NCBI GenBank assembly: GCA_964187785.1
Contig: OZ076409.1
Coordinates: 47,122,001 to 47,186,000, forward strand
DNA length: 64,000 nt
Direction: 5' to 3'
Source of the DNA: Amphiscolops sp. MND2022
Lineage: Eukaryota
Shown: piece by piece, positions 19,910 to 53,983 of the stretch
How the letters are laid out: every line of letters begins with the position of its first letter
How positions within the stretch are numbered: position 1 is the first letter of the stretch
The notes under the pieces: model-generated
Told to the model about the DNA's origin: nothing
The model's database searches: none
What the model saw: the letters and a program-made list of their open reading frames with translations, nothing else
Position numbers and translations under genes: made by a program

Positions 19910-20344
19910 AATCTTACTACAGACATGGGGGATAACCCATACATACGCCGCCCCCCACCCTTGAAAGTCCACCTATTTCCCCAAGATCACCGCCTACAGT
20001 TGTCGGATATAACCCGAGAAAAACAGCAAAGTACAATTTGGGACCTAATCCTAAACCTAATGCTAATTCTGACTTCAGACGAGTCGACGCTATAACTACG
20101 ACTCTCTAAGAAGGAAAAGATAATATCTGGAGTCCAAATCGAACCGATTTGACGATTTTCAATTATAGACATACTACAGCCTGGATAATTTTCTCTCTTT
20201 CCTTTTTTCAACCTGAATGACTCCAGCCGAACTCTATACGTCCGGTTTTCTTCTAATAAAATATACAGTCCAATATACAATTACAGAAACAAATAAATAA
20301 TATAAACTACGCTACGAAAGTTTGGAAATCCAAGACGACAAAGC

Positions 20345-23300
20345 TCACTTCTTCTTCGAACGGGACACATCATCTTTAACAGCTGATTGTCTAGACTTTT
20401 TCTCATCCTTCTTTGACGACGACTCACCAACCTCTTCAGCATCTTTCTTTCGACCAAGTAAAGAAGCTATGCTCCGATGTACTTGCACCTTACTCAAACC
20501 AAACGGACTACAAGTACTAGTGGCAGAATCAGCTGGGGCAGAAACGGTGGAAGCAGTCAGTCTCTCACACTGAGAAGAAGACTCTTCGCCATCAACAGCC
20601 GCAGCATCACGACTAGATGTTCCCACACCAAGGGACTGCCCAATGACACCACCTCTCTTGCGACTGACCTGTTTATTGAACAGATCTCTATAACGGTCAA
20701 CAAAAGCAGATTGATTCTCACCACATATACCTTCCCACGGATTGAAATCAGCAGCAGTCATGAAGGAACTAGCAGCAGCGATTGATTTTCGAACCTCGCC
20801 CATAGTGAACTTTGTAAAAAATGATCCCAGCTTAAACCCGGGAGACATAACGCAGCTCTGCACTCCTCGAATACACGTTGCAACCACACGTTCAGGCACT
20901 CTACAATCACTGAGGGCCAATGTCAACTGCAGGGAAGTCAACCCGTGGCTTCAGGACGACAAGGCAGCACAACTTGAACACCCGACATAACGACCTGCGA
21001 GCTAAGAATCCGTAATCGTCCAGCAAATACTGACGAACGTCGTCGATAGCCTCGGCACAGCTGTTGGAACCAGCGTGTCGTGCCCGAGCATCCACAACAA
21101 ACGAAGCGTACTCTTCCACAGCAGACTTTGATTCCAACGACGACACAACACCACACCGCTCCAATACTCGGATAAGCTTACGAAACAAGTCCGTCATGTG
21201 ATGGTCGTCTCCCTCCAACAAAAGCTCAGGGCAAAATGCATAAACACCTTGAGAGAAATCTCCTGTCACAGGCTGCTGTCCCAGTATGACACAAACAAAG
21301 CGATCGACGAATCTGAGGCACTGATCCCGAAGCGCACGGCCCTCACCACTCTTGTGACGTCGCAGAACAGCACCAAAGTCATGGCTTCTGAAGAAATCGG
21401 CGGAATCAATACACTCAAAATCATCAAGCTTCTGCGGGTCCATGTACTCTTCCCACGAATTCAAACTTGGAAGAGAACCAATCTTGTGACTACGCGATAA
21501 CAGGCAGTGCACGAACTGACAAATTTCCATATAGGCATGAAAGGCGTAGTCAGCTCGACACGACAACTGTTTCTTAAAGGTGCAATGATCTAAAACACAA
21601 TACCTAAATCATACCTGACACAATACTGACGGATTCCCTTAACACTACCACCCAATAAACAACATACAACTACACTCTGCCGGTAAAGTCCAAATATCAA
21701 GAAACTGTACTCACAAAGATCGAGGACGTGCAGGAGAAGTCCAAGACGCAACTCACTCGTAGACTCCGAATAGATATGCCAGTCAGTGCCACGCATCTGC
21801 AAATAAGAATGCAACTCATAATATATCAACTTAGCAACACAAACGATGACAACACAAAAGAGAGAGAGAGAGAAGAAAAACAACAAAACAACAAAAGAAA
21901 ATCAAACAAACATGAATTACCCTGCCAGCTCCGGTTTTGAAATGACGAGGGACAGTATGTTTGACGAAATCCTGCACAGATGTCCAAACGGCAATCAAAT
22001 CAGCGACGACATCACGCAAGTCTGCAAACGCAACACGTCCAGCGACAATGCATCAGCGAAGACAAGGTACACCTTCGCACCACGGCTCTTGCACAGCCCC
22101 ACGTAATCGGAGCATGAGGAAGTCAATCATGGCAGTAGTCTCCAAACCACCAAACACTTCCTGATGGGCCAGCTGATAACAGTGCAAGAACACGTCCACA
22201 CTGAACTCACGGTACACGACGAACTCACGTACGTCCACTCGATTGTCACTCAGCACACGCAACAGCGTCGGACTACACCCCTGACAGCACAAAGGCATCT
22301 GACAAGAGGAAGTACCGTCAATGACACGCGACAATCCGGCCAACTCAGCCTCAGGAACACGCTGCCCCACTGATTCGACTCGCACACAGACACTCATTAA
22401 CGTATGATCATCCCAGGTTTGGACGATGCAATTATGATCTTCACCACTCTCGATGAAGAACATGCTGTATTCCCGAAAAGCAGCGATCCGGGACATCAGG
22501 GAACGTAACACACGCGGAAACAGAGCTTGGCAAATCAACGACTAAATTACAACACCCGACGTTCACTACCCGCACAACACCAATACCCAAAGACGACAAT
22601 AAAACTTACAAACTTCCCATTCATAACCTGAATGTTCAACACACTAAAAGACAAAGAAATGCAGTACTCACGAGAGACTCAGGACGACTCCAATATAGGT
22701 TGTATAAGGGACTGCCAGGACCAAGTGTCGCTCGAAAGCACCCGAAAGCACTTCCTCCAAATCGCAACAACTCAATGAGGCAGTTAATCATCGACATCAA
22801 GGGCACACTTGAGTTTATTTGGGCACAGGCAGGAAGCAGGTCTTCAAGAAAACTGAAAACCTCGTTTTTCCCTTTGCTGGGTCGACTACGATATTCCTCC
22901 AATTGTATCTCACTCAAAGTCATCGGGTCCATCAGGCGATTATACACTGGCAAACCGTTCTGAACTCGATACGTAACATCAAGCAGCCAATGTCGTTTCC
23001 CGAAGAAATGCCTGCTGAACTCGGCTGCACCCCGCGATTCCCTTGAAACGTCTCGTTGACATATCATGCAATGGAACAGCTTGTCGGAACCAGTACTGGA
23101 ACCACTGACGAAGAGCTCGTATATAGGAATCCCAGTAACCATATCCCGACGAAGACGATTGCGAGGGCTATAAACGCGCTTGCGACCCCGCTCAGCTCCC
23201 TCGAGAGTCGACTCCATACGACTGAGCAGCTCTTCAAAACCTACAACAAATTCACCAACATAACATGCCTATCCCTAACTATTTTAAAGAATGACAAGGC

Positions 23301-24349
23301 AAAAAGGAGAACAACCGAAAAACAAGCAACTGATTCTCAAAACGAAAAGAAAGACCTATCAATCTCATATGCAAATCCCAAGACAAACACCAAACACAAT
23401 GGATTTCACTTACGGGCAACAAAGGGGTCCACTGACACGTTTTCAACATCCATCGATGGACGCTGAATGCTCACTCGTTGCGATGAGCCAGGCTCTGCAT
23501 CCTCCTCCCCACTGTCAGCGAAGGAGAAACGAACGACTGGAGTGGCAACACCAGGTACCAGCGACACACATTGCCCTGACGTCGACTGAACTCCGGAACC
23601 ACCCTTGTCAGGAACCACCAACCGCACTAAAACGGCAAATAAAACTCTAACACCCAACAGAGAAAAAAAACCCCAACCACAAAAGACCCATACAGACAAG
23701 AGATACATTATCGAATCAACTCACCATGCTTAGACCCCGTGAGGCGATCATCATCATCGTCCGTTGTCTGCACTTTGTGCAAGAAGGATGAAAACCGAGG
23801 CGAAACAGTTTTCTGACTCTCGACAACATTCTTTTGGGTAGGGGGAGACCCCTCACCTCCGCGAGTGGCAACTGTCCCAGAAGGATTAACACTTCTAGCA
23901 ACAGCAGCCAGAGGAACATCTGAATCAGAACAAGTTGGAGATGGATTGGGAGCAATTGCGGCGCCAACAGTGACAGAAGAATCGCCAACGCGATGAGTAG
24001 ACTCAGCAATGGGTTCAATTGAAATTCCAGAAAGATCAGCGGGAAGGGAGGTTTCGAGATGGGAGACAGAAGCCCTAGCCAAAGGAGAAGAGAACGTTGG
24101 ATCTAACAACAAATAAACATCCCATAACGACGCGTCAGAAAATCTAAGCTGTGAAAATATAAAACAGAAAAAGCCTATCTGTAGAGAATATTATTCACAA
24201 AAGCTTAATGGATGGAGGGATGAAAACTCACCAGCAGCAGGCTGCAAAGCAGGGGCATCGGCTTCACTATCTCGAACGTCTCCTTCCGAGAAGAGGAATT
24301 GGGTATCGTGACCGCTCTGGAAGCCAGAAACACGGCGCGAGGAAGACAT
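20345..24349 (-). CDS. Spliced antisense cargo gene (7 exons): zinc finger plus degenerate hAT-transposase-like body; one stop and one frameshift
   Basis: Phase-compatible GT-AG exons: 24349-~24232, ~24102-23725, 23626-23414, 23240-22672, 22541-21921, ~21796-21715, ~21589-20345. Contains CMIC..RHFFGKRH. Confidence 0.7.
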
Positions 24350-24398
24350 CGTTCAACAGCAATCTGGAAAAGAGCAATGATGAAAACAACAACCAAAC

Positions 24399-24655
24399 TG
24401 ACGTCACCATAACGGTGACAAAAATGAAAGTTGGCTAATTACCAACGAAATTGACGTCGGCATAACGTCGACAAAAAAGATTATCAGGGTTAAGAAAATA
24501 ATCCTATATCCTAAAATGACGTCATCAAAACGGTGACAAAATCAAAAAGTTAGCTAAGCTAACAAAATGACGTCAGCATAACGTTGACAAGTTTGGCTAA
24601 GTAAATTATTTCAACTTACAGCCAATAAAAACGCAATGTCGACATAACGTCAACA
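24399..24655. promoter_or_regulatory. Cluster of five palindromic TGACGTCA/GTCANC-ATAAC-GNTGAC sites in a divergent promoter region
   Basis: Copies near 24399, 24452, 24517, 24567 and 24637, between the antisense ATG (24349) and the sense ORF (24753). Confidence 0.5.
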
Positions 24656-24752
24656 TCTGAAGATTAAAAAGATTGAAATGATTGAACAGCCAATCAGAAT
24701 GGAGGGAATTTTCCAATATTCTCCTTAATCCAAATTAAAGCTGAAATTCAAT

Positions 24753-25545
24753 GTGGAACAATTAAAATACGATCAACAGTCGAAGAAGAAAAGCCAAATA
24801 AAGAAGATGATCAATTTAATGGACATATATGAACTAATTGACATTTCATCGTCGAGTGAAGAAGAAGGAGAAATCACAAGATCCTCTACCCCACTGCCAG
24901 AAAATAACGAGAAATACCCAAAAATAATAGTGGAGATATTAAACTAGTCAGCGGAAGCCACAGCAGATGAAGAAGAATTTCTAGACCTCTCCTTAAATTC
25001 GCTGGAAACCGAGTGTAAGAGGATGAATCTCAGTGAATCTTACACGAGTTTTGAAACAGTTGAATCGGGGCAATACCCTCAGTCAGAAAGCGAAGAAGAA
25101 ATTGCGGACTCGCCAGAAAGCCCTGATCCCTTGCTGAACTCAGACGTGTTTGTAGTAGAGAAACCTTGCGAAGAAGAAATGTCCTCCATGACTAGCAGTA
25201 AAGTCGCTGAATTCATAAGACAGGCAACGGAGGATGATGCATGCTCCTATTTTGAATCCCCCCGCGGACCTCTGAGAGTTTGGGGAGAACAGAAGAAAGA
25301 ATCGCTAAACGATCTAGATGAAGAAAGAGGCCCGGCGATACTGCTCCCATCCAGGGACCAAGCAATTGACCCTAATGTCTACGAGCTACAATACCCCTCT
25401 ACCAGCTGAGGTTCCCTGGGAGGACGATAAGACCTATGACAGTGGCCCTGTCACAGTCCGCTCCCGGACTGGGTTGTGGGTGTTTAAGAATTGGCTTCGG
25501 GAGAGGCCACGGCTGCACCGCGAGGTTCAAAAAAACTTACTTTAA
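24753..25545 (+). pseudogene. Acidic accessory ORF running into the 3' LTR
   Basis: Frames 24753-24947 and 25023-25409 are in phase and separated by one TAG. A shifted frame then crosses the LTR boundary at 25449 and stops at 25545. Confidence 0.45.
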
Positions 25546-27819
25546 CTATTAAAACTAACAAATAAACTGTGACTAGGAAAACAAAAATACGTCTGATCAA
25601 CGGAAATTTCGAATGAAAATAGTTACAAAGAATGAGCGCGCTGAAATGATTCTTACATTTCCGGTTGAAACGCTTTTGTCACGTCAAAATAGCAACATTC
25701 GCCACCTGAAAACTAAATTAAAATACGTTCTAAAACAAAGAAATCATAGCCTAATCCAAACGAAAACGTAGTCAAAATCATCGCCCAAAAGAACATCAAT
25801 CAGATCTAAAATAGAAAATACACCGAGATGACACACCGAATGATTTAAGCCTTTTCTTAGAAAAGCAGCTTAATTACTCTCCGAACAGCAATTAAATTGG
25901 TTTAGGACGTCAATATCACGCTGAGTAAACAAGGCAGCGGAGAAAATAAGAATACATGTATATTTGTCGTCAGTAAGACGCAGACAAGTTTGAAGATATA
26001 CCAATTGACGTCACTGCCTCGCATAAGCGTACCAGAAAATCATTCCAATTATCCGCCTATACTAATAGCATTACCAAAAATCATTCCAATTTAGCGCCAC
26101 TGTGACGTCACTGCTCCGGCAGCTAGCGAGAGACTCATTTCTAAAATACTCGTCAGCATTGCGGCGAACTAGTCAAATCTCTATTCTGCCAAGAAAACTC
26201 GTCAACATGACGTTGACAAGTTTATAAAGCTCAAAATTCTGCCAAGAAAACTCGTCAACATGACGCTGCCAAGTTTATGACATTGAACAGAATGGATGAA
26301 TTTGCAAGATCAGTTAAGGTTTCATCACAATAAAGTCGTTATTATGTTAAAACGGAATGAATGCAAGCTACTTCAATTCAAAAAATAAGCATAGAGGAGG
26401 TATTCCTATAACTTAAGGTATTAACTTAAGGTAGATTTTGACACATATAGGTTGATTTAAATCTACGTTAATTAATCGTCTTGCACTTTTCAACAACAAG
26501 GGATTTCCCTTACTTAAGCCATTTTTCCTCTATGGGAGTTCATAGTAAATCAATCAGAAAGTCACAGTTTATGCTTTCAACTAAAGTATATTTTGTATTG
26601 AAAATGTATTTTCATATACTTCGTTTTTTGTACTCTATGATTTTGAACGCTATACTTATGATCGTAATCATATTTTCCATACTAATTCATCGTTGCTATC
26701 CATTAAATGCGTTGCATTGTCGTTGCTACTTAACAAACGTTGCTGTTAATTTTGTAAAACTTGTCGCACTGGTCGCGACATGATAAATTTGCTAATGGAG
26801 TAATATTTTAATACCATGATTTTTAATTCTAATTCCAACGAAAGAGTGAGTCCAAATTCATAAAATATCATCTTAGCATCGTTCAAATAATCACGCTTTG
26901 GGATTAGTCATAGCATTTGATCAAGTTGAATTTCAAAATCTGGTATTTGTTGTTCACGTCAGCGTCATCTTAGCGTCAATTTCCCGCGAACCAAAGCAGT
27001 AAAACAGGGAAGCATTTCCGGTTTGACAGACTGAAGTAATATCTACTTCCTGCTTGGGAGGAAGCAAAAGGACGCCGGGATGAAATGATATGATCATGTT
27101 TGATGGCTAACGCTAAATTAAAATTGCCGTGTCTTAAAAATTGACGAAATGTCGACGCAAATTTGGGAACTTCGTGATTTTTTCAACAATGAAACAGGAA
27201 ATGACTAATTGATCGGAGAAAATTAGGGATTATAGTCGTGATCAAATGATGCTGGGAGGGTATAAATATGATAGAATCTGATGATTAAGGGACTCAGTCT
27301 TTTGCAATTGTTGAAATTCAGTTGAATTCTCAATTTCCGCTAAACTCTTAATTTGCTTAACTTTGTTAGAAAATATCTCTGAAAGAAATCAATTCTTCAA
27401 GATAAAACATATCTACAACAAAATGTCAACAACAAGAAGCCAGAAAAGAAGGAATGACCAGCAAGGAAGTGATAGAAATGTAAGTGAAGGTTTTGTTTCA
27501 CCAATAGGAACGGAAAACCACTGTTCCCCAAACCAGGACGTAGAAGTAGCAGGCCCATCTAGGCCAAAATCGCCCCGAATTGAAAATAGCCTCTTAGAGA
27601 GCCTAAGAGCCTCTTTGAAAGAGGAGATAACTTCCGAGATTAAGAATCTCCTCATCGAATCTCAAAAGGAGCTGTTGGAACTCCTTAAACCTTAAACAAG
27701 GGAGAATATTAGAGAAAACTTCGATGAAGAAACGGAGAACGAAACTAGAAACTACTATACTCCGACAAATTCAGTTAGAATAAATTCTACGCAAAACGAC
27801 CCGAACATAAGTCGTAACA
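25449..27819 (+). repeat. 3' LTR (2371 bp)
   Basis: Direct repeat of 11762-14132, followed by the TSD TTTGG. Confidence 0.97.
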
Positions 27820-28565
27820 TTTGGTATTGACGTAATTTTAGAATTACGTCAATACCAAATACGAGCACTTGATAATTCAGCTCGATAGTTTACTTTCGCA
27901 ATTCCTCTTGTACAATTACATTTCATTTGAAAGCTGAGACCATCTGTACAAACGTGTATACTGCAAAGAAATGCACTTCTGAGATTTTTTGTTCTCTAGG
28001 TGAAAGAGATCCAATATAAGCAAAATGGCTTCCAGTTTTGAAGTAATTATTTCACAACTTCGAATTCATACAAGATTTTAACTCTTGTATGAATTAGAGA
28101 GCTCTTCTGACATTTCAAAACTGTTTTAAGGAACAAATTTACAAGAAAACATCTCTAAAACAGTGTAGCAACCCAGCTTTAGACATCTTGGAATTTTGGC
28201 AAGATTATTGAATTTTCCCGTTCACCTGGGTAATTCCACCACAATCTTTAGAAATCCTGGAAATCTCGCCAAGCTTACCAGGTGTCTCGGATTTCGTGGC
28301 AAGATCTCGAGATTGCTTGAATCTCGAGTTTCTCATTTCAGTTCTCCAATTGACAACATAACGTACACAGGGAATATGCTAGGAGAATACGACATAAGAA
28401 GGTAGAATTCGACGAAATAAGGCCATTATCAGTTGAATGCTAAGCCAATGAAAAAAGGGTTACACGCTAGCAGATATGGATTGGCATATCAACAGTTAGC
28501 CTTGAGAGAACTAGGGAGAACTCCATGAAAATATTAGTACAAATTTGGAAAACTTACATATAAGA

Positions 28566-28765
28566 NNNNNNNNNNNNNNNNNNNNNNNNNNNNNNNNNNN
28601 NNNNNNNNNNNNNNNNNNNNNNNNNNNNNNNNNNNNNNNNNNNNNNNNNNNNNNNNNNNNNNNNNNNNNNNNNNNNNNNNNNNNNNNNNNNNNNNNNNNN
28701 NNNNNNNNNNNNNNNNNNNNNNNNNNNNNNNNNNNNNNNNNNNNNNNNNNNNNNNNNNNNNNNNN
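28566..28765. other. Assembly gap (200 N)
   Basis: Run of N. Confidence 1.
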
Positions 28766-29130: not shown

Positions 29131-29293
29131 TTTATGTAAAATTGACTGAGCATTCTACAATTACATAAATATACACACACACATGTTTACGAAGTAGCAC
29201 TTGGTGGGTCCGTACACGAAACGGGCATAAGGTGGGACGTACACACTTTTCCCTTTGTGGGACATACACAAAAACTTTAACTTGGCTATTAAA

Positions 29294-29729
29294 AATACTT
29301 ATTGACATGCATTGGTGGGACCTTAACACAAAATCTTTTCGGCGATTTTCAGCTATCAAGAATACTTACTGACATGCATTGGTGGGACCTTAACACAAAA
29401 TCTTTTCTACAATTTTCAGCTATCAAGAATACTTATTGACATGCATTGGTGGGACCTTACCACAAAATCTTTTCGGCGATTTTCAGCTACCAATAATACT
29501 TATTGACATGCATTGGTGGGACCTTAACACAAAATCTTTTCGGCGATTTTCAGCTATCAAGAATTTTTATTGACATGCATTGGTGGGACCTTAACACAAT
29601 TTTTTTCGGCGATTTTCAGCTATCAGTAAAACTTATTGACATGCATTGGTGGGACCTTAACACAAAATCTTTTCGGCGATTTTCAGCTATCAAGAATACT
29701 TATTGACATGCATTGGTGGGACCTTAACA
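29294..29729 (+). repeat. 67-bp tandem repeat, ~6.5 copies, core GCATTGGTGGGACC
   Basis: Units start at 29294, 29361, 29428, 29495 and onward. Confidence 0.95.
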
Positions 29730-30301
29730 AAACATTGTTTTTCCAATGTTATTCTTTACGAATGAAACTCGGTCATTGGAGAGAGCAAAGTATTGTAGCT
29801 ACTGAATCAATTATTAATATTGAAAAAGAGGAGACAATCATTTATTGCATTTATTGTAAATGAATTTTTCTATAATGACTGAATGGTATTTACATTCCAC
29901 TAACTTTGGAATTTACATTACTTGATTTACACCCCAGTAACTCCATATTTGTTGTACACCTACTGAATAGTTTACAACCCGCGTTGGTGGGACTTACACA
30001 CAGCATTCTCGCCAACGAATCAGAGGCCGAGACGCATGGGGCCATTTCACGCATTGTTGGTGGGACATACACACAATCCGTTTAACCAATCAAAAACGCC
30101 AATTCCATCGATGACAACTTTTGGCCGCTTGTCGGCGCTGTAAAAATGTGTAGGTGTGGAGTGTGAGGCACTTGGTGTCTTTGTCAATTTTAGGCATTTT
30201 GTACTATGTGTAAAATGGCGTCCCACTTATTATGTCCCACCTTGTGCCCGTCCCACCAAGGCCTAGTAAAAAGTGGGGTCTATGTCCCACCAACTCTGGT
30301 T

Positions 30302-30305
<4 letters not shown>

Positions 30306-30338
<33 letters not shown>
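30306..30338 (+). repeat. (AC)n microsatellite, ~16 units
   Basis: Seen directly; a shorter (AC)n-CATGT occurs at ~29173. Confidence 0.95.
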
Positions 30339-30341
<3 letters not shown>

Positions 30342-31311
30342 GTGAGAATCCGCACTTGGTCGGTCTGCCAGCACAATCCGCATAAGGTCGAACATTTACA
30401 CTCACATTTGACCGGTCGAACGAAACAGTCGAACTTTCACATAAAAGCGGTCGAACATGCACATTCTATCTTAGACTGTCTGAGACTACAAAAGATAGAA
30501 AAAGCCACATGCCTTGGTAGGACATTAACACAAACTTGAAAGTGTTGTGCAAAAGCTGATTTCATGCTTTTTTGCTCCTTTCCTAATCAGTCTATGACGA
30601 ATTATAGTTTTTTGTTCTACCTGTTGCTGTAAAAATTAGGCAATTTGCACGCATTCTTTTAATAAACCTTTCCCCCCATTGCTAATTAAAAAATCTTGAT
30701 TTTAAACATAGATATAAAAATTTCAGAATTGTACTCTAAAAGTAACAAAATTTGAAAGTTTTTGGGCAAAATCTAGTTCGTCTTGCGTTCTTTACACTGA
30801 ATAACCGTTCGAAAGAAACTAAAAGCCAAGCCAAAGCCAATAAGATGAGTGAGTCAAGTGAGGATGAGTGAGTCAAGTTATTCGCAATAAAATATTGCAT
30901 TCGTTAATTTTCAATTCTTTAAGCGAATAAAAGTGTCCGCTAACGCTTTATATTGTCGCTAACTATCGATATCGCTAGTTTATGCAGAATTTTCGCTACC
31001 GCTATCGCTGCCACACCTCTGATAACACATTAGGAACAAAATAAAACTATTTCTAACTTAAACAAAATAAGGAAATATTTGGACGCAAAAGTGAATTCAG
31101 AAAACACAAAACTGAATAAGCAGAAGCAATAACTTTATCAACAAAGTCCGATAAACATTTCAAATTTATTGAACAAGCTGTCAGAAAATTCAAAATTCAA
31201 AACAGTTAAGTCAATTCAGCGTTCACAAAATATAAAAATTGTCGATATAAATACCATTTCCTAAAAATAAAAAAGTTTTGAACTGAAAGTCTTTGAAATT
31301 TCCAACAGTTT

Positions 31312-34300
31312 TCATTTTCTGGCATCGCTGACCTGCATATTCCTCACTTTGTCCTTGATATCTTGCCACTTTTGTGCATGAGGATACCTCTTCATTGCTT
31401 CCAAACAGACATCTTGACCGGGCAGACGCCCTTCCATCATTTCTTTTCGAAATTCCTTTCTCAACGCCTTTTCTTGATCTTTCGGCCATTGTCGTCTGGT
31501 GGCACCTTTTGGCCTTCCAGCAGTTGTTCTCTTCTTTTTCTTGGGCCTTCTTTGTTCGGGTTCTTCCTCAGAACCATGGGAAACTTCATCTGCTTGGAAT
31601 GAAGCGTCATCGTCTGACTTTTCTTCCTTGTCGTTGTCGTCGTCATCGTCATCGTCATCTTCATCAGACTCATCCTTCTTCCCTTTCTCTTTGGTTCGTT
31701 GTGATGTGCTGCGGCTTGAAGTCGCCTTCGAGGAACTCGGAAGATTTGAATCAGCAGGAGTTTCTACTTCTTCACCTACATCCTGGAAAGTTCAAAATTT
31801 GGGGAAATTATGACACGAAGACGTGATTTTGCTTTGCAGCTTTTCGAAGAGCAAACTTCTCAAACACCGTATGCTACTATTTCAACAAAGAACTCAAGAA
31901 ACTAAATTTCGACACTTGTTCAATTGGTAATCCAATTCGAAGAGAAATCAGTATTCTCAAACACCGGGCGTTGCTATTTCAACAACAAATTCAAGAAACT
32001 AAACTCCGACACTTTTTTAACTGTTAGTTCAATTCGAAGTGAAATCAGTATTCTCAAACACCGGGCGTTGCTAATTCAACAAAGAATTAAAAAAACTGAA
32101 CTCCGACACTTTTTTAATTGTTAATTCAATTCGAAGTTAAAAGTATTCTCAAACACCGGGCGTTGCTATTTCAACTGAAGCTTTTAAAATTATTGAAAAA
32201 AAATTAAAATTGGAATTCAAACTTATCAACCTATTCGCAATAGTGTTTGAAGTCAAATTAGTAGAAATTCTCACCGAATCGTCAAGATTCAAAGTCGGCT
32301 GGAGTGTGTCAAGGTTCTCTAGATAGGCGTCTTTGACCTTGCCTTTGTCCGCAATGTATAATAGTTTGGTCATTTTTGCCAGGTTTACAGCATCAGTGTG
32401 CTTCCTGTAGTACTTGTCGTGAACATTCAGGTCGTGTCCCAGGAAGTCGGCCACCCAAACTCTTTGGTTTTGTGGTAAATCCAAGAACTGGGCTGCAGTG
32501 GCAAGATACTTGCGGAGCTTTGTAGATCGGAACACTTTTTTGTCTTGCAGCTTAAACTCTTCAGCGTATTTCCTCAAAACATCGATGCTTCTGTAGAATT
32601 GTTCGCCTCCCTCTGTTTGGAAGAAGTAGTTGTCACTTTTCAGCTTATCGTCATTAATCATGATGTCTATCACTTCTAGTGTTTTAGGTGGAATCAAAAC
32701 GGGAACAAATTTTCCACCTTTCCCAGGCAGTCGCAGCAACGTGTAGTACTTTGCGAACATCATTTCAACTTCTGTGAGCTTAAAAAGTTCGTAATCCGTT
32801 GTTTGTGCCCTCTGTAAAGCCAGACTTCTTTGGAGAATCATGTCTTTTCGTGTTACACCCGAAACTTCGCGATCTCGCTTCTTATTAAAACTGACAAGAT
32901 CAGCAATCACGATTTGTTTCATTTCGGCGTAGTTGTGAGTCGTTTTGGCCAGCAAACCCGAAATTTTTGCCCCAATCTTTTCTCTGAAGCGCATCATATC
33001 CGAAGTTGGAATGACAAGGTGTGTCGACTCGTTCTGTTTCTTCAGCATCCTGTTAAAACAATCAAAACATACAAGGCCAATATGAAAAAAAAACTCATTT
33101 TGGAAATACGGAATTAAAGCTGAAAACATTGAAAAAAGGTTGATGCTATCCGGATATGCACCCACGTGGGATTGTCATATTTCACGACAGCTTCCCTCCT
33201 GCACTGTTGCCGCAATGGAAGACTCAACATTGTCAATTTGACGCTTAAGGGCGCGACATCCGCTCAGGCATAGTACCGAGAACGGAATTAAATGAAAGAT
33301 ACTACAAAAATTAAAAAGTTGTCAAACGACGTACATCTGCATTTTTCTGAAGTGCAAAATCATTTTTGTTTGTTTTTGTTGAATTTGAAAGTCAGTATGA
33401 GACGTTTTTCGTGGTGACATGAAGTGTTAAAAAATAAAAAACTAACTCATATTTTGCTGGTGCCGAAATTGCTGCCCACTCACTATCTAGAATTTTCAAG
33501 AACTCTCTTGCTGTTTCCGATATTGACTTCTTTTTCCACATCCAAGCCTGGTTGCGTAAGAACTGAGCAGCTGTTTTCAGAATTGATCCCATTTTAATCC
33601 TGTAGGACTTTTCGAATGTCATAACAGCTTCTTTCACTCTTGGCCACATTTCGGGATTAATGACTTCAATCAAGTATGAGCAATTGAGTTTGTGTACAAG
33701 CTTGGCCATTGTTCTCATTCTGTCGTTGATTTGAAGGTAACCCTCGTCAGCTTTTCTCTTATCGAAGTACCACTGGCCAAGGTATCGTATCAGAGGATCA
33801 CGCCTTGCAATATTCCCATATTCATCATGTCTCATTCGTGTGAAAACATATTGTTCAAATGGGGTGTCTTTGGTAGCTTTCACTTCGAGCATCAATGCAA
33901 ATGTAGCAGCCTTGATATTTTTTCCTGTATTGCTCAAAGCTATCTTTCCACTTGCTGGACAATCTGTTTTATGTCGATACATTGTTTTTTTCTGGAAGAA
34001 ACCGAGACAACTTGGACAAGGGGCAAAGTCATAAGCAGATGGATTTTCAGCTACAGTTGGATCCCTGGCAACAATCAATTTGCTCTCGAAGTTTTGGGTC
34101 TCGCTGCACTTCTTGAAAACAGCGATGTTGTATTTATAGAGACCTTCATAGACAATCAAGTGAGTGAGATTGTCCTTCTCTCTCCTCAGTTTTTTAAGTT
34201 CGGTCTCAGTTTGAACAGTTTCCCTGCCTTCTTCAAGATCCTCAATTTCCTTGTTAATCCTTTGAAGGTTTAAAACTCGGAGTTCTTTGCGATGAAATTT

Positions 34301-37300
34301 ATCCACATGACGTGTCAGTTTTTGCACCATAGTGGCATTTTCTGGTTCAGTGAAGGGACAGTAAGGACAACATTTTGTTTTTCTGTGTTTATTCAGGGCG
34401 ACTTGAATTTTGATCTTCCGAAGAAATTTAGCATTGAATTGGCATTGTCCTGTTTGTTGGACGTACTTCTCCATTACAAGTTCCATTTCCTGATCGTCCA
34501 TTTCTTGGGTATCCGTTGAAGTTGTAGCTGACTTGTAAGAACTTTCACTAATCTGACTGATACCTTCTGCATTCAAAACAACTTCTTTGGTTATTCCAAC
34601 CAGAGGACCGCATTTCTTCGTTTTTGATCTTGTTCGTTCCAATGGCTCATCTTCCGATGGGTATTCGCTGCTCACATCCTCATCGTCCGTGTCATCATCA
34701 CTTCCGGGAGTGAATCGATCGCTCGACGAGGTGGACGAATCTTTACTAGAATCTTCAGTTGTTCCACTGGAACATGGGGGCTGCGATTCTTCGTCGCTTG
34801 AGCATTGTTCGGAGACGGATTCTTCGCTTTCTTCAGCTTCCGGTTTCGGCTGTAGGTATTGACGGCCCTTGGCGAGCAGTTTTACAGCTCTGGTTGTTCC
34901 CTTCCTGGGTGTCAACTGCAAAACAACACACTAAGTTGAACATCACTATCAACCAATTGAAATGTTTTCGGTAAAACTTCAACAGAAAAACAGCAATTTT
35001 CATTAGCAAAACCTTAGAAACTCCGCCTTCAATTACTTTTCGCTTTATTCCAAAACATCTTTTTTCTACAATTGTTTTTTGACCAGTAGATGTCTCACGA
35101 AAGAAACCAAGGGGCTCCGGCATTCTGAATTTTGGAGAGCTAGGTCGAACATGCGACGTATGTTCGACCAAATGTGATGAACTTTTATGCGAGACGAAAA
35201 ACGACTACTGAAAAACTTTTGTGGTTTTTATCAAGGAAAGTGAACCAAAAGAAAACTAGGTTTACTTTGTGAGGTAGAGAAGTATCCGGAGTTGAAGAAC
35301 TTTCTTCCTTTTTCTGGTATTTGTTCGTCGTCAACCTTTGAACAGATTCCTCGATAGCTGAGTCTATGTTCTTCGGCTTCTTGGCTTGCGGCTGTTTCGT
35401 TGATGTCAGGGTCGGCTTTTTGACAGCCTTTTTTTTTATCTCCACTTGCTGTTGGTTGTTGAAGCGGTTCAGCTGGTCTTGATGCTCCGCAAATGGTTGA
35501 TGATCTCACTGGTCCACTTTTAGAAGACAACGCTGCGACGGACGGCTCATTCGCGTCAATGACAGATGCCAGTTCCGAAGCATGTTCATCAGCAACATCT
35601 GGCTTGGCTTCTCCACTTTTAGCTGGTGGTTTCGGATCAACTATCTCGCCGACAGCTGGCTTGGCTTCTCCACTTTTAGCTGCTCCTTTCTGAGCAAGTT
35701 TCTCTCCGACAACTGGCTTGGCTTCTCCAGTTTTAGCTGGTGGTTTCTGAGCAACTTTCTCTCCGGCAGCTGGCTTGTCTTCTCCAGGTTTGGCTGGTGG
35801 TTTCTGAGCAAGTTTCTCTCCGACAACTGGCTTGGCTTGTCCAGGTTTGGCTGGTGGTTCCGGAACAACTATCTTGCCGACAGCTGGCTTGGCTTCTCCA
35901 CTTTTAGCTGTTGGTTTCTGAGCAACTTTCTCTCCGACAGCTGGCTTGGCTTCTCCACTTTTAGCTGGTGGTTTCTGAGCAAGTTTCTCTCCGACAACTG
36001 GCTTGGCTTGTCCAGGTTTGGCTGGTGGTTCCGGAACAACTATCTCGCCGACAGCTGGCCTGGCTTCTCCACTTTTAGCAGGTGGTTTCTGAGCAACTTT
36101 CTCTCCGGCAGCTGGCTTGGCTTCTCCAGTTTTAGCTGGTAGTTTCGGAACAACTATCTCGCCGACAGCTGGCCTGGCTTCTCCACTTTTAGCTGGTGGT
36201 TTCTGAGCAAGTTTCTCTCCGACAGCTGGCTTGGTTCCTCCAGTTTTAGCAGGTGGTTTCTGAGCACCTTTCTCTCCGACAGCTGGCTTGGCTTCTCCAC
36301 TTTTAGCTTGAGGTTTTGAAGTAAGTTTCTCTACGGCAGCTGGCTTGGCTTCTCCAGGTTTAGCTGATGGTTCCGAAACAACTATCTCTCCGACAGCTGT
36401 TATGTCTTCTCCACTTTTAGCTGGTGGTTTTGAAGCAAGTTTCTCTCCGACAGCTGGCTTGGCTTCTCCACTTTTAGCAGGTGGTTTTGAAGTAAGTTTC
36501 TCTCCGGCAGCTGGCTTGGCTTCTCCACTTTTAGCTGATGGTTCCGAAACAACTATCTCTCCGACAGCTGTTATGTCTTCTCCACTTTTAGCTGGTGGTT
36601 TTGAAGCAAGTTTCTCTCCGACAGCTGGCTTGGCTTCTCCACTTTTAGCAGGTTGTTTTGAAGTAAGTTTCTCTCCGGCAGCTGGCTTGGCTTCTCCACT
36701 TTTAGCAGGTGGTTTTGAAGTAGGTTTCTCTCCGGCAGCTTGCTTGGCTTCTCCCCTTTTAGCTGGTGACTTCGGAGCAACTTTCTCTCCGGCAGCTTGC
36801 TTGGCTTCTCCACTTTTAGTTGGTGACTTAGGAGCAACTTTCTCTCCGACAGCTGGCTTGGCTTCTCCACTTTTAGTTGGTGACATAGGAGCAACTCTCT
36901 TTGCGACAGCTGGCTTGGCTTCTCCAAGTTTTTTTACGACAGCTGCCTCGGCTACTCCAAATGTAGTTGGTTGTTTTGAATCATCCTTTCCTGAGGCAGT
37001 TGCTCTGAGTGCCACCACGCATTTCGAGAAACCTTTTACTACACCGGCTGTCTGTTCCGACTTCTCATCTTCGGTTTTTGATTCGGAATCAATATTCTGT
37101 GTAATGTTGGCTTTCGATTCTGGTTTTGACGTTTCTATTTTCTGGACCTGGTGTTTTAAAACAACTCTACTTCTGGTCTTCGGCTTCTCTTCCTTTGTAA
37201 CAGCTGATTTGTTTGTAACGTAGAATTCTTTTGTAGAATTTGGGTTTTCCAAATTAACTGGTGTCTCACTTTCGGGAACCGCGGTGTTTTTTCGCCACTC

Positions 37301-40300
37301 GGCATTTGGGAAGCCATAATCATATCGCAGCTCTTCTCCTTAAACAAGGTTGCACGTGAATTTTTCAAATAAAACTCATTTCTTTATCTGCGAAGAAAAA
37401 CACTTGTGTTCCTTTTAAGCTTCCCCTTATTCCATTTTCTAAAACTAGATATCAATTTTCCTGTGCCCACGTAAATAGTTTCTTGCTACCCGCTGGTGAC
37501 AATATTATATTGTTGTTTTCTCCAGTTTCATTTTTTGGCGATTCGAAATCTATCAAAATTTTTCTTTCAAAATTGAAACTATGAAAATTTTCAAATCAGT
37601 CAAAAATATTTCTGAATTATATCAAAACTTATTCTATTTTTGGACAATGTAATTCGATTCATGTAAAACGGACTCAGTATGATGCTGTTTCTTACTAGCA
37701 GAAGTTCGGACTGGCAGTTAGTAAAATTTGTCGTCGTGTTTTTACAGTCACAAGGTCGTACTCGCACTTGGTAGGACATGACTGATTTTACAAGCACATG
37801 GTCGGACTTGCACTTGATTGATCATGATGTTCAAGCACCACGCGTTGCTACTGTTGTCGCTGTGACCCACCAATGTATATCTTGTAATTAAAAAAATGTC
37901 AATTTTTCGAAACCAATTTTTTGTTCAATCTAATGGCACTGGCATCCTCAGACTTGGGGGCAAATGGTTAACGAAACAATTTTCACGGATGTTTTTTCCA
38001 CAATGTGATGGTTGGAAAAAATGCTAACTTGATAAACTTTTTTTCGAAGTTACAATTGTTCTAATTTTGGAACTCTTGTTGCAGAAATTCCATTGAAACA
38101 TTTTCAGAGATACCAAAAGTTCTAAAACTTCCCTTGATGTTTCGTATTTCTGGCACTTTCTTAACTTATTTGTTGTTGAACTTTGTAATTTTAGGCAAAA
38201 GAGCTGCGGTATTTTGAAACGCGTTCGCACAAAGGTATATTTTTGGTAAAGTAATTGGTTGTTTTAACTTCAAAGGTTCTATCTTATGTTAGTGTTGTTA
38301 GTATTGTGGACAATCCCGCTATCGCGCGATTGTCGAGCTCATCTTTTGGGGACAGCTCGTTACAGTATATGCAAATAGATGGATATGATGGTCCAATGCC
38401 AATAACGACTGCGTTACACTATTTCAGTTTTTCTGCATTGCGCCAAAAATTTGAATTTAGCAAATATTTTCAATTGTTTGCTGGAGTCGACCGTCATTCC
38501 GCGGCAGCCCTTCGCGCCACTTCATGTCGGTTTTTGTCAAAACGGGCTGCTTGCCAAGTAATGTATTGTCTCTCCGCTTTGCTGCCTTGCTGCACATAAG
38601 TGCATACTAGGTGCATAAGAACATAGCTGATTACATTATCATAATTAGTTCATTGGTGTTTAGCACACAAACTCAATCACTTTGCTTTTTCCCTAATTCA
38701 ATTTTCAACCAATCAGAAGCGTTTAATAAACGTTTTTGGCGCAATGAAAAGCTTACTAAATTTCAACGTTTAGGGAAACGGCCAAAATTCTGGCGGTTAC
38801 CAGAAAAAGTCCATTTCGAGGGATTGTTTAAAAAGATTACGTACCAAATAACAAGAGCAAATAACAAAAACAAATTTAGTTTCAAATAACATTCAATTGA
38901 AAGTAATTTCTTATAAAATAAAAATCAAACTGAATACTTGGTTGAAAAATTGAACTCACGTAATTTTATCTGTAATTTTTAATACTTTTTTCAGTGAATC
39001 CTTTGAATTTTCTATAATGTTGAACACTAAAACTTTCTCGTGTTTTTATTTGCTCTAATGCTATTTGGGAATTCACCGTTTGAAAACAATTTTGCTCAAT
39101 GTCATGCAATTTAGAAATTATGGATAAGATTTGGGATTTATGCTAAGCCCCATCCTGGTTTAAAGACGTCACCTGGAATCGAGAAACTTGAACACCTCTC
39201 AAATAGGGAACTTGATTTGAGCCTATCAAATTATGTACTTACTTATCCCTGGAACTTTTGCCAAAAGTGATTGGAATATCAACGCCCTGTGTTAGTGAGT
39301 TATCCCAACTTAGATGATTATATACATTCCGTATAATGAAACAATCTGGAAAGCAGTGATGTCCATTTATAATAAAATAAATGATTTTTCATGTGCCAGT
39401 GGAAAGGACAGAAAAAACTTATACAGCTCGTGGACTCTATTCCAAGCAACGCTCGGTGTTCGTGAATTTTTTCACGACTTGGTCGAACATGAACACTACT
39501 TTTCACTATCGGGTTAAAATAGCAACGCCCGGTGCTTGAATTCTATAACGACTTAGTCGAACATAAACACTACTACTTTTTACTACCTGGTTAAAATAGC
39601 AACGCCCGGTGTTTGAATTCTATAACGACTTAGTCGAACATAAACACTACTACTTTTTACTACCTGGTTAAAATAGCAACGCCCGGTGTTTGAATTCTAT
39701 AACGACTTAGTCGAACATAAACACTACTACTTATCACTACCTGGTTAAAATAGCAACGCCCGGTGTTTGAATTTTATGGTGACTTGGTCGAACATAAACA
39801 CTACTAGTTTGTGTTTTAAAATAGCAACGCCCGGTGTTTGAGCTTCATTACCACTTGGTCGAACTTGAACATTATTTTTCATTCCCTGTACACGAAAGTT
39901 ATTTTTCAACGTTATATATGGCTCTTTGCTGCAAAACATCCGCTCTAATGCTCAATGTTGACCCATGATAATCCTATTTCCCAAAGAAAAAACCGAAAAA
40001 CGTTCAAAAGGGCCTAATGAGAAGTTAACTTGGGCTCCGCGACAGTACCAAAAACGAACAGAAAACGCGATTTTATATGCAAGAACAATATGTTTGAAAT
40101 ATAAATAGAACGTTTTTCAAATTGCACTTGGTGTGGCCTTACCCTGTACTTTACTAAGCATCGATGGGACTTTTTAACGCAGTCGTGTTTGTTTTCAATC
40201 ACCAAGTAATTTACTGATTGCTCTCTCCTAATTGCCAGCTTGTATGCAAAGCTCTCAACTTGGTTCATTCACCACCCAACACCCCATGGGGATGGCAGGG

Positions 40301-41400
40301 TTTATTGACGCTTCGCTTATTATTGTTTAAAAAATAAATAGGACGTTTTCGAAAATGCACTCGGTGGGACCTGAAACTAGTTTACTAAGCATTGATGGGA
40401 CTTTAACCGCAATCTTGTTTGTTCCTATTCGCCAAGTAAATAAGTGGTTGTCCCCTTCCTGATTAAACTCAAATCAACAGCTTGTATGGCAAGTTCTCAA
40501 CTTGGTTCATTCACCACCCAACACCTGACAGGCGGATAACTATACTCTATCTTAATTTTTAGCACTTTTTTCAATCGATAAACTATTCGGAATCAATTAG
40601 TGGGACATACTTTGTGGGAATTGAAAAATTACTAGAGCGTGGTCATGTGTCAAAAATATGGAAGTAAGGGACCATGTGTTCAATCCTCCTCAAGGGGCCG
40701 CTACTTGTCAGTTGAAAGTTATTCTTTTAAATTTTAAGGCGAAGAAAATTTGCGTTTGAAGAACATAGTTTGAACAAAATTTGTATTTGAATCTCAAACT
40801 GTCAAAATGAAATTAGTTTCCAATATGAACGTTTAAGGTGCTAAGTTTAAGTCTTTTACATTCGAACACTGTCACTGATTTCTCAAAACATTTCTGACTG
40901 TCATTTTGACTGTTTTTTGGTAGCAACTAAATCTGGGTTTCAATTACTTGAGAATTCTGGGAAACATTACAGAAGATTGTTCCACAATTTGAAAAATTAA
41001 ACTGACCTGGAAGAATAACACGAGTTGCCAGGAAGATGCAATGTGGTCTGCCGTCGTCGTCATGAACCTTTTTCATTCGACAGTTGGCGGCAACTGATTT
41101 GTCCTTGTCGTTGATAAACCTCGCCAAGCCAGAGTTCGTCTCATCGGAAGTGTCAATGAACACTGTGTCTTTTCCCTCCTGAACTTCCATCACGTAGTCA
41201 AAGTTGGCGACTTGAGTTGCTCTCCTCGGCCCCCAATAACTCAGGAGAAACTCTTGCGCTTCAAATTGCTTTTTCACGAAAAGCCCTCTTCCAGTCGTTC
41301 CATTGGCGAATTTGACGGTCTGGACAATGAAACCCTCCGGATCAGAATAGAGGAAGTCTTTCCACGATTCAGTTTTTCGCGCAGCACTACGAGTAGACAT
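31312..41400 (-). CDS. SET-domain / tyrosine recombinase fusion protein, ~1726 aa, 5 exons (one +1 homopolymer frameshift at ~35430)
   Basis: Exons 41400-41007, 37338-35266, 34915-33447, 33049-32275, 31782-31312, all GT-AG and phase-compatible. The splice rebuilds SET motif ILPG|EELRYDYG. YR motifs: FNKKR, PGKGGK, STKLRK, FLGH, HDKYY. C-terminal W..W..VRN Myb/SANT-like region. Confidence 0.85.
31855..32175 (-). repeat. ~96-bp tandem repeat with the AGCAACGCCCGGTG core in reverse orientation, in the last YR intron
   Basis: CACCGGGCGTTGCT at 31962, 32059 and 32154. Confidence 0.85.
35600..36950 (-). repeat. 57-bp coding minisatellite (19-aa PAKSGEAKPAVGEKLASKP), about 23-24 copies, in exon 2
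   Basis: Visible in the DNA and in ORF 35231..37252. Confidence 0.95.
39445..39870 (+). repeat. 77-bp tandem repeat with the AGCAACGCCCGGTG core and a GACTT(A/G)GTCGAAC motif
   Basis: Core at 39521, 39598, 39675, 39752 and 39823. Confidence 0.9.
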
Positions 41401-41840: not shown

Positions 41841-43938
41841 TCAATTTTGTTGGTCCCAAGATTCTATTTCGTCCCAGTGGAAGTCCCAAGTGGATTCGCA
41901 GTACATGTAGAGGAAAACCTCCCAGGGGCTCTCGAAGGGCTCTTTTCCTTTGGGGTGTCTACGTTGGTCAGCCTTGATGATAGCCAGCATCTTCCTCAGC
42001 TCAACTTTACTGACAGTGCTCTCTGAACGATGACGATATGACCACTCTCTGTAGAGGAATATGACAACCAAGGCTTCAAAGTGAGGAAATGCAAAGGAGG
42101 GTTGGAAACCTTGTTCGAGTTCCTTCTCGAAGGCCAGGGCGCTCCGATACATGTGCTTCTCCATAATGAAGATACAGCCAAACGCCACGCTCTCTTCCGG
42201 GGTGAACACAAAATGAATCCATTGACTGGGTAAGAACAGACAATCGCCTTTTTCTAGCACTATCTGATGCGTTGTCACGTCCCGGTGAAAGCCGAAGAAG
42301 AATGAACTGAAACAGAGAGCATGTTGAAGAAGCAACTATTAACCCATGAATTGGTCATAGGGATCTAAAATTCACTACCGTTCGTTCATCGCGCACATAG
42401 TTGTCATATATAAAAATCGGTGGTAGATTAATACCATCGATCAATAGCAACGCTCGGTGCTGGAAAAAAGTAACAATTGTTGCGACCTAAATTTGAGATA
42501 AAAAAGGAACGCCCGGTGCTGGAAAAAAATTAATTATTGCGGCTTCATATTTAAGATGAAGAAGCAACGCCGTGATGGAAAACGAGAGTGTTTTTAGGAT
42601 TCGAACGAAAAAGCAATCGATCATTGATGCTTCTCCAACGTTCTAAAAATTGAAGAAAAAACCTAAAAAATACTTTTGAATTTGTACCTATTTTTCAGAA
42701 CATTTATGACGCAAGCAAAGCTCCTGATCATGTGCCTTGAATAAAGTCTCACTTACTTTCTGTTACCGCTCGCAAGCCATTCCTCAAAAAGCTTTTGATT
42801 TTCCTCGGTTGGCTCCACAACAAAGAAGTGTTTCTGGCCCTTTGCCAAAATGTAGAAAATGGATGTGCCCGTGAAGTCCTGATGCCAGTTAGTTTGCGCT
42901 CCAGCTTCTGACATCAGCAGGTAGTCACTAATTCCTGATGTGAAATCAAATGCCAACTGGTTTTTGGGGCTCATAGAATTCTTCGTGCAATGGCCAAAGG
43001 AAATGTCCGTCACTATATTGGGCAAACAAAACCGGTGAACCATCCCGCTCTTTGAATCCGCGTTGAAGTCAATCACATTCATCGGATGATATTCATGCTC
43101 AAGGCTGCGGTCTTCATTGTGCTCAAGAAACTCCTCCAGAGTGAATTCATCTTCATTTTCTTGAATCGGAGAGAAACAGACATTAATTTTGACCTCCCCT
43201 GGAATTCCCTCTGTTACACAACGAAAAGACGTCAAGCTTTCAGCAGGAGGAGTTGCGATACCAGGAAGTTTGTTGGTACACTGGCGTATAACAACAGGTT
43301 TTGAAGGGCTCCCGTTGCAAAACTTGGATCTAATATCGTCCACATTCAGCACATCAAAATCATTTGTGGCAGGCGGTGCTTTTGCAAACACATGCTGCTG
43401 GAATTCCACAGAACCAACTTTGACTCCAATTGGGGGAAGCGAACTGAAGTTTGTTGAGTAAGAAGCGACGCCCTCCACGGCAGTCTCCAGCTGTTCCTCG
43501 ACCGCGACTTCGGTTGTCCTCGGAGGTGTTTTTTTTGAATCTTCAGCTCTCTCTTGAACGTCAACCGCTTCAGCACCCGTAAGAGTTTCTTCGGATGAGA
43601 CTTCACTTCTCTCTCCAAGAGAAGCAAGGGTTTCCAGTTTAAATTGAAGCGACTCGTCACTTGAGAAAGGAGGGCTCTCATCCGCGAGAGATCGTCGTTC
43701 TGGGGTCTCTGGAACAAACGGTTCCAAAACTGCGCTTTGGTCGACAAGATTTGCACTTTCCTCAACTGCACCAGAGGATGTAGTGGGCTTTTGTTCCAAA
43801 AACGTGAAAGTTGTCGCCGTTTGGGAAGTACTGGTTGTGGCTGGAGCAAGATGGTACTTTTTTTGTGCCGCGTTAGATCAAAACTTCGAGTCGTTGTCGT
43901 GCCACAAAATTCACACTCGAAGATACCTTTTTGGCGTT
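41841..43938 (-). CDS. C2H2 zinc finger plus JmjC 2-oxoglutarate/Fe(II) oxygenase, KDM2/KDM7(PHF8)-like histone demethylase; 5' end incomplete; one homopolymer frameshift at ~43860
   Basis: Exons 43938-42757 and 42306-41841 join in phase 2. YLLMS..TNWHQDFTGTSIFY..GQK..PT and LFLPSQWIHFVFTPEESVAFG give an intact HxD..H triad. CEFC..LTRHKK(K)YH finger. Confidence 0.85.
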
Positions 43939-44329
43939 CTGAAACATAAGACTCGTTATGCGAAGGAATCAAACGGAAGCCAAAAAGAATGCTACAATAT
44001 TCGACTTGGTGCCAGTAAAAAAGTTGGTTATAATCGAAGTTTATCGATCAATCTTAGATGTAATCTAGTCACTGTTCATGCGGTGCAACACCCGGTGCTG
44101 GAGAATGAGACTGTTCCTTAAAACTCGAAGAAAAAGCAACGCCCAGTGCTACAAAAATGAGGTTAAAACAAGCGCGACACAATTCAACTAGCCACTGTCA
44201 TGAATACTATATTGGTATTTATTTATATATTATTCAGGACAGGGCTTGTCAAACTATGCCAGAGACAGGTTATTCTAACATATCTCCCTGAATTTCGTTT
44301 TTTGTATTCAATTAAAAAAGAAGTATCGA

Positions 44330-50327: not shown

Positions 50328-50517
50328 TTGGAGGTGGTGAAGGAAACTCACTGGGTTCCACAGCTTCTTTTTGTCGCTTCTGACAAGTCTTTTTAGCAAC
50401 ATGCTGCTGCAATTTGGTCGTGCTTGCGCAAATTAACCCACATAGTTGGCAAGTGCAGCGGAAAATGCTTTGAGCTTTTCGTGTTCTTTGGCCTTAAAAA
50501 CAGAATCGTGTGAAAAC
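50328..50517 (-). CDS. Probable upstream zinc-finger exon of the JmjC gene (6.4-kb intron); 5' part out of frame
   Basis: Encodes CQLCGLICASTTKLQQHVAKKTC. The phase-1 GTAAGT donor at 50327 fits the acceptor at 43939, giving PPP-K-RQKGIFEC. Confidence 0.5.
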
Positions 50518-53500: not shown

Positions 53501-53983
53501 GCGGATTCACGAAAACTGAGTTTACATTTCGCTCGATCAACTGACTTGCTTTGTGATTTTCAAAATCGTTGTAGATAACTAGAAATGACAGATGCTATAT
53601 AGCAAACGAAAATTCCTGAAAATTCAGGTGGTCAAGATAATTATGAGAATAAATTTCGTTATATAACTGAGAATTCTAGTTTATTACTGCCAGTCAATTT
53701 CTATGTTTGTAGCTACAAACAGCAGTAGTTGACTGGTTGATAACTTGCTTGAGTTATCTCGGTTCCCGAATTTCAAAGCTCTTCGAGACAAAATAACGTG
53801 TTTTTGTTACGGTTCTAGTAACCTATTCACAATAACCCTTGTAGCCTATATTAACACTCAACTTATCTCGTGCCAAAACCAAGTATGTGTTCTATAAATT
53901 CAATTCAACCAACAGAGAAAAACAAATAGTTGAAGCGAGAAAACAAATTCAGAAATAAGACTGTTTTTGAAAATTGAAAGTTT

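Follow-up and report, generated by a model that had tools for sequence, protein, structure and literature searches.

The stretch analysed here, 64,000 nt of the Amphiscolops sp. MND2022 genome (GCA_964187785.1, contig OZ076409.1, positions 47,122,001 to 47,186,000; hereafter the window), carries on its minus strand a five-exon gene predicted to encode a SET domain, a tandem repeat, zinc-finger-like motifs, a tyrosine recombinase (YR) and a C-terminal helix-turn-helix (HTH). Exon 1 (41400-41007, 394 nt, a length kept in 23/23 copies examined) contains the SET domain minus its last strand, with Pfam SET and SETD8 matches. Exon 2 (37338-35266, 2073 nt) begins with (G)EELRYDYG and the post-SET Trp and continues as a low-complexity linker; it holds a tandem repeat (35595-36926) of 23.4 copies of a 57-bp (19-aa) unit, whose length differs between copies. 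Exon 3 (34915-33447, 1469 nt), which is conserved in the related family B described below and in fish homologs, covers an acidic linker, Cys/His finger-like motifs and a predicted YR core-binding region, exon 4 (33049-32275, 775 nt) the YR catalytic domain, and exon 5 (31782-31312, 471 nt) an acidic stretch, a homeodomain/Myb-like HTH and the stop. The four introns (3668, 350, 397 and 492 nt; phases 1, 0, 2 and 0) are all GT-AG, and the exons sum to 5182 nt. A sequence-only reading of this DNA had joined five open reading frames (ORFs) into one gene of 5181 nt after removal of one base; the four GT-AG junctions, their recurrence in family B and an open sister copy bear this out, and the measured length equals 5181 nt plus that base. 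It had also placed EELRYDYG behind an AG acceptor at 37338, in frame with a repeat ORF of 673 aa: the acceptor stands as the start of exon 2, with identical position and phase in family B, whereas the ORF measures 702 aa from stop to stop.

In the window copy the spliced frame ends at codon 850 because of a run of nine T (35429-35437, minus strand) that causes a 1-nt frameshift. The run is 8 nt long in the closest copy (L096 on C9, 99.4% identical over 29 kb), in which all five exons are open for 1668 aa; among 22 measured copies it has 8 nt in 12, 7 nt in seven and 9 nt in three. The 23 copies examined are the window, two fetched copies and 20 chosen for neighbouring SET and YR matches, a biased choice. 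Besides L096, three of them are open over the four exons captured, and splice sites are canonical bar three, each in a different copy. Homopolymer errors as the only source of the breaks in these copies were rejected: 4 of 12 frameshifting indels (exons 1, 3 and 4, copies of subfamily A1) are of homopolymer type, and real decay is therefore likely too. We also set aside further exons inside intron 1, which shows no conserved coding segment against family B, and a bypass of the frameshift through the other phase at donor 2, for which no matching acceptor was seen and which the open copies make unnecessary.

Family B begins 74 bases past the window end (element listed at G000:C1:47186086 onward; L011-L016). 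It is 70% identical in the YR and 76% identical in the SET to the family of the window copy (family A), and synonymous sites are saturated. Its four junctions fall at the same positions and phases, its intron 1 is 436 nt long and its spliced frame is open for 1609 aa; as the junctions are conserved despite the saturation, chance is no explanation. A single spliced SET-repeat-zinc finger-YR-HTH gene is thus a prediction well supported by independent copies and homologs. It is scarcely credible that SET and YR are mostly separate products, for example through read-through of donor 2 into a SET-repeat protein. Intron 1 is indeed 3.7 kb long with a weak AAG acceptor, and the donor 2 read-through is open for a short stretch, but exon 1 by itself is missing the catalytic strand, exon 3 offers no start of its own in the model phase, the junctions persist in family B, and single-protein homologs exist. 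In a small share of run X1, reads cover the introns and show no joint at the predicted junctions; X1 therefore behaves as DNA and says nothing about splicing.

The exon 4 model (predicted local distance difference test, pLDDT, 89.9) matches the folds of XerA (Z 12.6, root mean square deviation 3.6, 173 aligned) and XerH (Z 12.5, 3.8, 194 aligned), followed by topoisomerase IB (Z 12.1). By sequence, exon 4 has no Pfam match at E ≤ 1, a PDB search with the YR as a single sequence gave 0 matches, the profile gave only XerH at E 0.64, and a PHROGs search gave no significant match. The catalytic residues are R59, K111, T177-x-L-R180, H206 and Y215 (numbered in 33051-32275). Across 138 homologs at no more than 55% identity, R59 is kept in 130/132, K111 in 137/138, R180 in 134/137, H206 in 137/137 and Y215 in 135/137. 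The catalytic R, K, R, H and Y that had been read from the sequence, with TKLR in place of HxxR, are therefore near-invariant, and TKLR is the family norm. Of the flanking modules, the zinc finger is visible as a Cys/His pattern but reaches only E 0.36 in Pfam, and the C-terminal domain, which had been called Myb, is modelled as a three-helix HTH whose nearest folds are homeodomains (Z 8.2), with Myb repeats behind at Z 5.2-5.3, although such values show only a common fold.

The SET domain of exon 1 matches Pfam PF00856 (E 1.4e-6), and all 14 of 14 matches in a PDB sequence search are SETD8/KMT5A. The GRG, ELxYDY and post-SET Trp of SETD8/PR-Set7 are present, and these three together with the Asn are retained in family A, family B and fish homologs. 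Among 14 SET-bearing homologs, 11 with a scorable motif read ND in ten cases, NA in one and NH in none; the likeness to SETD8/PR-Set7 with an RFIND motif, noted earlier, is upheld by the PDB matches, and RFIND is the family norm, not a quirk of the window copy. In one pair of copies representing subfamilies A1 and A2 (L096 and L106), the ratio of non-synonymous to synonymous change (dN/dS) is 0.033 for SET (15 synonymous and 2 non-synonymous changes), compared with 0.11 for exon 3 and 0.12 for exon 4. No other part of the protein is as constrained as SET, which is under strong purifying selection.

Proteins of this kind are widespread in animals. The family comprises 2154 clusters at E ≤ 0.001, and the Atlas neighbours of the YR are chordate and arthropod proteins; presumably, a PANTHER family of SET-related proteins covers these YRs. 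Fifty long homologs, chosen by length from 155 proteins, include 13 with SET in the same protein. One fish protein (P0002, Gymnodraco acuticeps LOC117559977) has the same SET-repeat-zinc finger-YR-HTH order with the same ND and TKLR, yet uncharacterised animal SET-YR proteins such as this one are about 30% identical to the protein described here. Two other homologs (P0047, P0145) carry a zf-CXXC or OTU domain in place of SET; these may be other chromatin modules on the same recombinase, or gene-model fusions.

The SET-YR gene belongs to a 33.7-kb element; it lies at one of the ends and is transcribed toward it. The element runs from 30338 through 64000 to a right end about 66 bases past the window (G000:C1:47186042-47186066), a block shared at 97-99% with copies on C1, C2 and C9. 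Its left terminal inverted repeat (TIR; 30344-30363, plus strand, 20 bp) is mirrored at the right end, and its left end lies in an (AC)n target site (30306-30338). Sharp ends were found at 30 left and 30 right loci, and 22 left/right pairs span a median of 33,580 bp (range 12,291-49,014); the right end reads AAAG-AC in 20/22 and the left end AC-ATGTGT in 15/22, and most flanks are AC-rich. The YR exon has at least 147 scored matches among 643 candidates in G000; identity is at least 88% in 85 of these and 69-71% in 60, and two fall between. One insertion lies in a dispersed repeat; of 11 paralogous loci without the element, nine join its two flanks directly at an AC, three of these overlapping one tandem site. 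For a second insertion, only a partial repeat was found. The element is best read as a recently active giant CryptonV-like transposon. The search for the right end of subfamily A2 did not find it. In one case (L053/L084 on C1920), more AC units stand to the left of the filled site than in empty paralogs, as though bases flanking the donor had come along; they resemble the coupling sequences of Tn916-type elements. An imperfect internal copy of the right TIR (53491-53510) is kept in all copies compared and could define shorter derivatives.

Family-B ends abut 9/30 left and 11/30 right family-A ends, so both families stack at shared targets. A non-autonomous 1.1-kb family-B derivative with both ends present (29187-30306) is likewise stacked on the left end of the element in the window. 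We rejected families A and B as a single 83-kb element, as each has its own TIRs and they are found apart. Spacing to adjacent family-A copies suggests a family-B length of 50-58 kb; its right end was looked for and not found. Across 49 kb, the family-B copy after the window shares 99.5% identity with another on C3. The copy after the window has open SET-YR and JmjC genes and carries a roughly 10-kb insertion with a long trinucleotide run. Within intron 1 of the window gene, a repeat at 40090-40530 is about 87% shared with family B in inverted orientation, which suggests that the families have exchanged sequence or that a small element is nested there.

Next to the SET-YR gene, on the same strand, lies a C2H2-JmjC gene (mapped part, without its upstream exon, 41841-43945; intron about 42756-42307) that resembles KDM2A (E 1.5e-10) and PHF8 (E 1.7e-7) and keeps the iron ligands HxD..H (WHQDF..WIHF). 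It bears a 1-nt frameshift near 43529, and the window copy is thus broken in both its SET-YR and JmjC genes; it would be mobilised in trans, unless both homopolymer shifts are assembly errors. Families A and B have in common the SET-YR gene, the C2H2-JmjC gene, a small two-piece zinc-finger gene (50365-51368, minus; tblastx 55-67%) and a small unknown ORF (58284-58604, plus; 91% identical in family B, no Pfam match), which has a paralog at 54017-54316 (minus). No reverse transcriptase was found among the element ORFs, and no polymerase, capsid or packaging ATPase gene of the kind known from Polinton/Maverick elements or endogenous viruses among the long or Pfam-scanned ORFs, although finely spliced genes could escape such a scan. 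Viral contigs gave 19 pattern matches, of which none was confirmed as a relative.

The element also holds non-coding tandem arrays with family-A motifs, one at 39445-39871 and others at 31857, 49585, 55399, 56500 and 60954. The motif GCAACGCC occurs 43 times in A and 0 times in B, GTCGAAC 22 times and 3 times, and GGTGGGAC once and 39 times; means in 30 first-order Markov resamples were 0.3-3.8. The motifs had been chosen by eye from these same sequences, family B is represented by an incomplete stretch and the controls are simple, so the contrast between A and B carries more weight than the enrichment. The motifs lie in 8-13 clusters, and some are related to the TIR core of their own family.

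Divergent JmjC matches led to a second lineage, in which the same C2H2-JmjC gene, in at least one subfamily, stands beside a different SET. This SET is closest to SUV4-20H1/KMT5B (E 1.5e-12), with 150 scored matches of 503 candidates and many subfamilies; examples lie at L138:7661-9718 and 5162-6316 (minus) and at L156:5221-8679 (plus). The region after it shows an R..K..N/SxRK..H..Y pattern, and in one copy the SET and this region form a single unspliced ORF of 1153 aa. Alignment of the region to the family-A profile with hhalign gave a probability of 2.5%, and Pfam gave no integrase match; from its motif pattern alone, we infer a putative YR-like domain. If this is right, H4K20-type SET domains would have been joined to recombinases twice.

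We propose, with a probability of roughly 60%, that the predicted protein has two roles: as a recombinase it mobilises the element, and at element DNA it methylates a lysine, probably one in a histone. Movement by YR-mediated circle excision and AC-homology integration is very likely. The YR would bind both TIR arms and excise a circle with an arm-ACATGT-arm junction, a sequence that in family B is a perfect 20-bp palindrome, and the circle would integrate through only about 2 bp of AC homology, steps suggested by YR chemistry and by the circle models of Cryptons and Starships. Each insertion would leave a new ACAC/ACATGT site, so that elements stack. The YR/HTH part would also bind the family-specific motif copies in the arrays along the element and deliver the SETD8-like domain to element chromatin. 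That the SET is an active methyltransferase is probable, and histone H4 lysine 20 monomethylation (H4K20me1) is a tentative candidate for its product; the adjoining KDM2/PHF8-like JmjC would remove methyl marks. By analogy with VANC for VANDAL, SET and JmjC might keep element chromatin permissive against host silencing, a possibility we put forward with reserve. A recombinase depositing a lysine-methyl mark where it binds, as the sequence-only reading proposed, is plausible, given that constraint on the protein is strongest in its SET (dN/dS 0.033).

The SET could instead serve recombination itself, marking nucleosomes with H4K20 methylation at the target or donor for integration or repair, in which case only the termini would matter. 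The SET is joined to the recombinase and not free, both SET types are nearest to H4K20 enzymes, and published excerpts give SETD8 roles in DNA damage repair. We regard this as unlikely, however: YR chemistry is established to reseal its own breaks, the clustered motif arrays lie far from the element ends, and the JmjC is a separate gene.

Several observations weigh against a recombinase that also marks element chromatin. The predicted junctions are known from genomic sequence alone, 19/23 copies examined carry a break somewhere in the exons seen, and SET was not seen in 37/50 long homologs, many of which may be partial models. At the first His position of HxxR, the YR has Thr in 131/137 homologs. 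In the SET, the expected NH, which is part of the S-adenosylmethionine (SAM)-binding motif in SETD8, reads ND, and the i-SET region is short by about 9-12 residues relative to SETD8; with part of the i-SET helix missing, H4K20 specificity may be lost. Suv4-20 is usually a repressive writer, and the Suv4-20-like SET of the second lineage does not sit easily with anti-silencing. The motif arrays could simply be TIR-derived repeats. In excerpts of the literature, H4K20me1 is tied to both repression and activation, and PHF8 removes H4K20me1, so that writer and eraser could oppose each other.

The fusion, ND and TxLR characterise the family, SET being present in 13/50 homologs, ND in 10/11 and Thr in 131/137. 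The gene is accordingly no lone oddity, as it had first appeared, but a multi-copy transposon recombinase whose fusion, RFIND and TKLR recur across the family. The ND in 10 of 11 scorable homologs and the i-SET deletion would also suit a catalytically dead SET that binds histone tails or SAM and tethers the recombinase to nucleosomes. This appears quite improbable, as the GRG, Asn, ELxYDY and post-SET Trp are kept from family A to fish homologs, and PRDM9 is an active SET enzyme without NH. Very unlikely, too, is self-restraint, in which the writer silences the element in somatic cells or when copies are many and the JmjC frees it in the germ line: the Suv4-20-like SET of the second lineage would fit it, and PR-Set7 is associated with silent chromatin in a published excerpt, but candidate copies number in the hundreds and the families are very young, which suggests little restraint. 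We retain an element-marking recombinase as the preferred reading.

Among known systems, CryptonV is closest. Passages of PMC8869645, citing Kapitonov and Jurka 2012, describe it as a YR lineage of animal DNA transposons with microsatellite-targeting families, and part of PMC5753468 lists it in a table. Like the element here, CryptonV is a YR-encoding DNA transposon without reverse transcriptase, inserted in microsatellites; a size of 33-58 kb, a SET fusion, JmjC cargo and motif arrays go unmentioned in the published passages (PMC8869645). Judged by this description and not by sequence kinship, CryptonV is the likely home of the element. Cryptons F, S, A and I, according to part of PMC3212892, are YR-only transposons thought to move as circles, some with an extra DNA-binding or peptidase domain, and have no TIRs and 4-6-bp terminal direct repeats, whereas the element here has TIRs of ~20 bp, an AC repeat of ~2 bp and TxLR instead of HxxR. 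DUF3504 of CryptonA is absent from exon 4 (Pfam E ≤ 1) and from the 50 homologs (1e-3).

Starships, found in fungi, are giant, YR-mobilised, cargo-carrying elements with a demonstrated circular intermediate (10.64898/2026.09.21.753150, in part) and are recognised by a DUF3435 captain as first gene (passages of PMC13465315). The element here is likewise giant (median 33.6 kb) with cargo genes, but its YR gene points outward to its end, its cargo is small and chromatin-directed, its host is non-fungal, and DUF3435 has no Pfam match in the window ORFs scanned or in the 50 homologs. In VANDAL, every one of a set of related elements has built up short motifs of its own within non-coding tandem repeats, and VANC is a separate protein acting on DNA methylation in plants (both from excerpts of PMC5735166). 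The families here similarly have private short motifs in non-coding arrays; the candidate effectors, in contrast to VANC, would be enzymes acting on histone lysines, one of them joined to the recombinase, and motif binding is putative. SETMAR/Metnase joins a SET to a DDE mariner transposase as a single domesticated host gene, whereas the SET fusion here belongs to a mobile element's own multicopy YR. We found no published description of this arrangement, although most subscription journals, Repbase Reports and supplements lay outside the search and could hold one.

Speculatively, these elements may form an unrecognised class of giant animal YR transposons with a complete histone-methylation toolkit, in which H4K20 writers (SETD8-like and Suv4-20-like) were captured twice independently and joined to the recombinase alongside a shared JmjC eraser, and private arrays would make a sequence-specific, self-targeted epigenome editor that defeats host silencing. 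Documented cases of sequence-specific anti-silencing come mainly from plant VANDALs, and how animal transposons withstand silencing at the histone level is still a question. Families as young and numerous as these, with open genes, defined ends and private motifs, allow anti-silencing to be tested directly. As the SET-YR protein is unnamed across many animals (2154 clusters), any result would lead to re-annotation of a large 'uncharacterized' family. As a large-cargo integrase, too, a YR that carries 34-58 kb into AC repeats with about 2 bp of homology deserves attention.

Elsewhere in the window, an assembly gap of 200 bases (28566-28765) lies 1.6 kb left of the element. A Gypsy-type long terminal repeat (LTR) retrotransposon occupies 11762-27820, with 2.4-kb LTRs that are 98% identical (11762-14133 and 25449-27820), a frameshifted gag-pol on the plus strand and several minus-strand ORFs at 20345-23268 without a Pfam match. 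Beyond it, a PLAC8-family ORF is found at 10422-11087 on the minus strand (Pfam E 6.8e-14).

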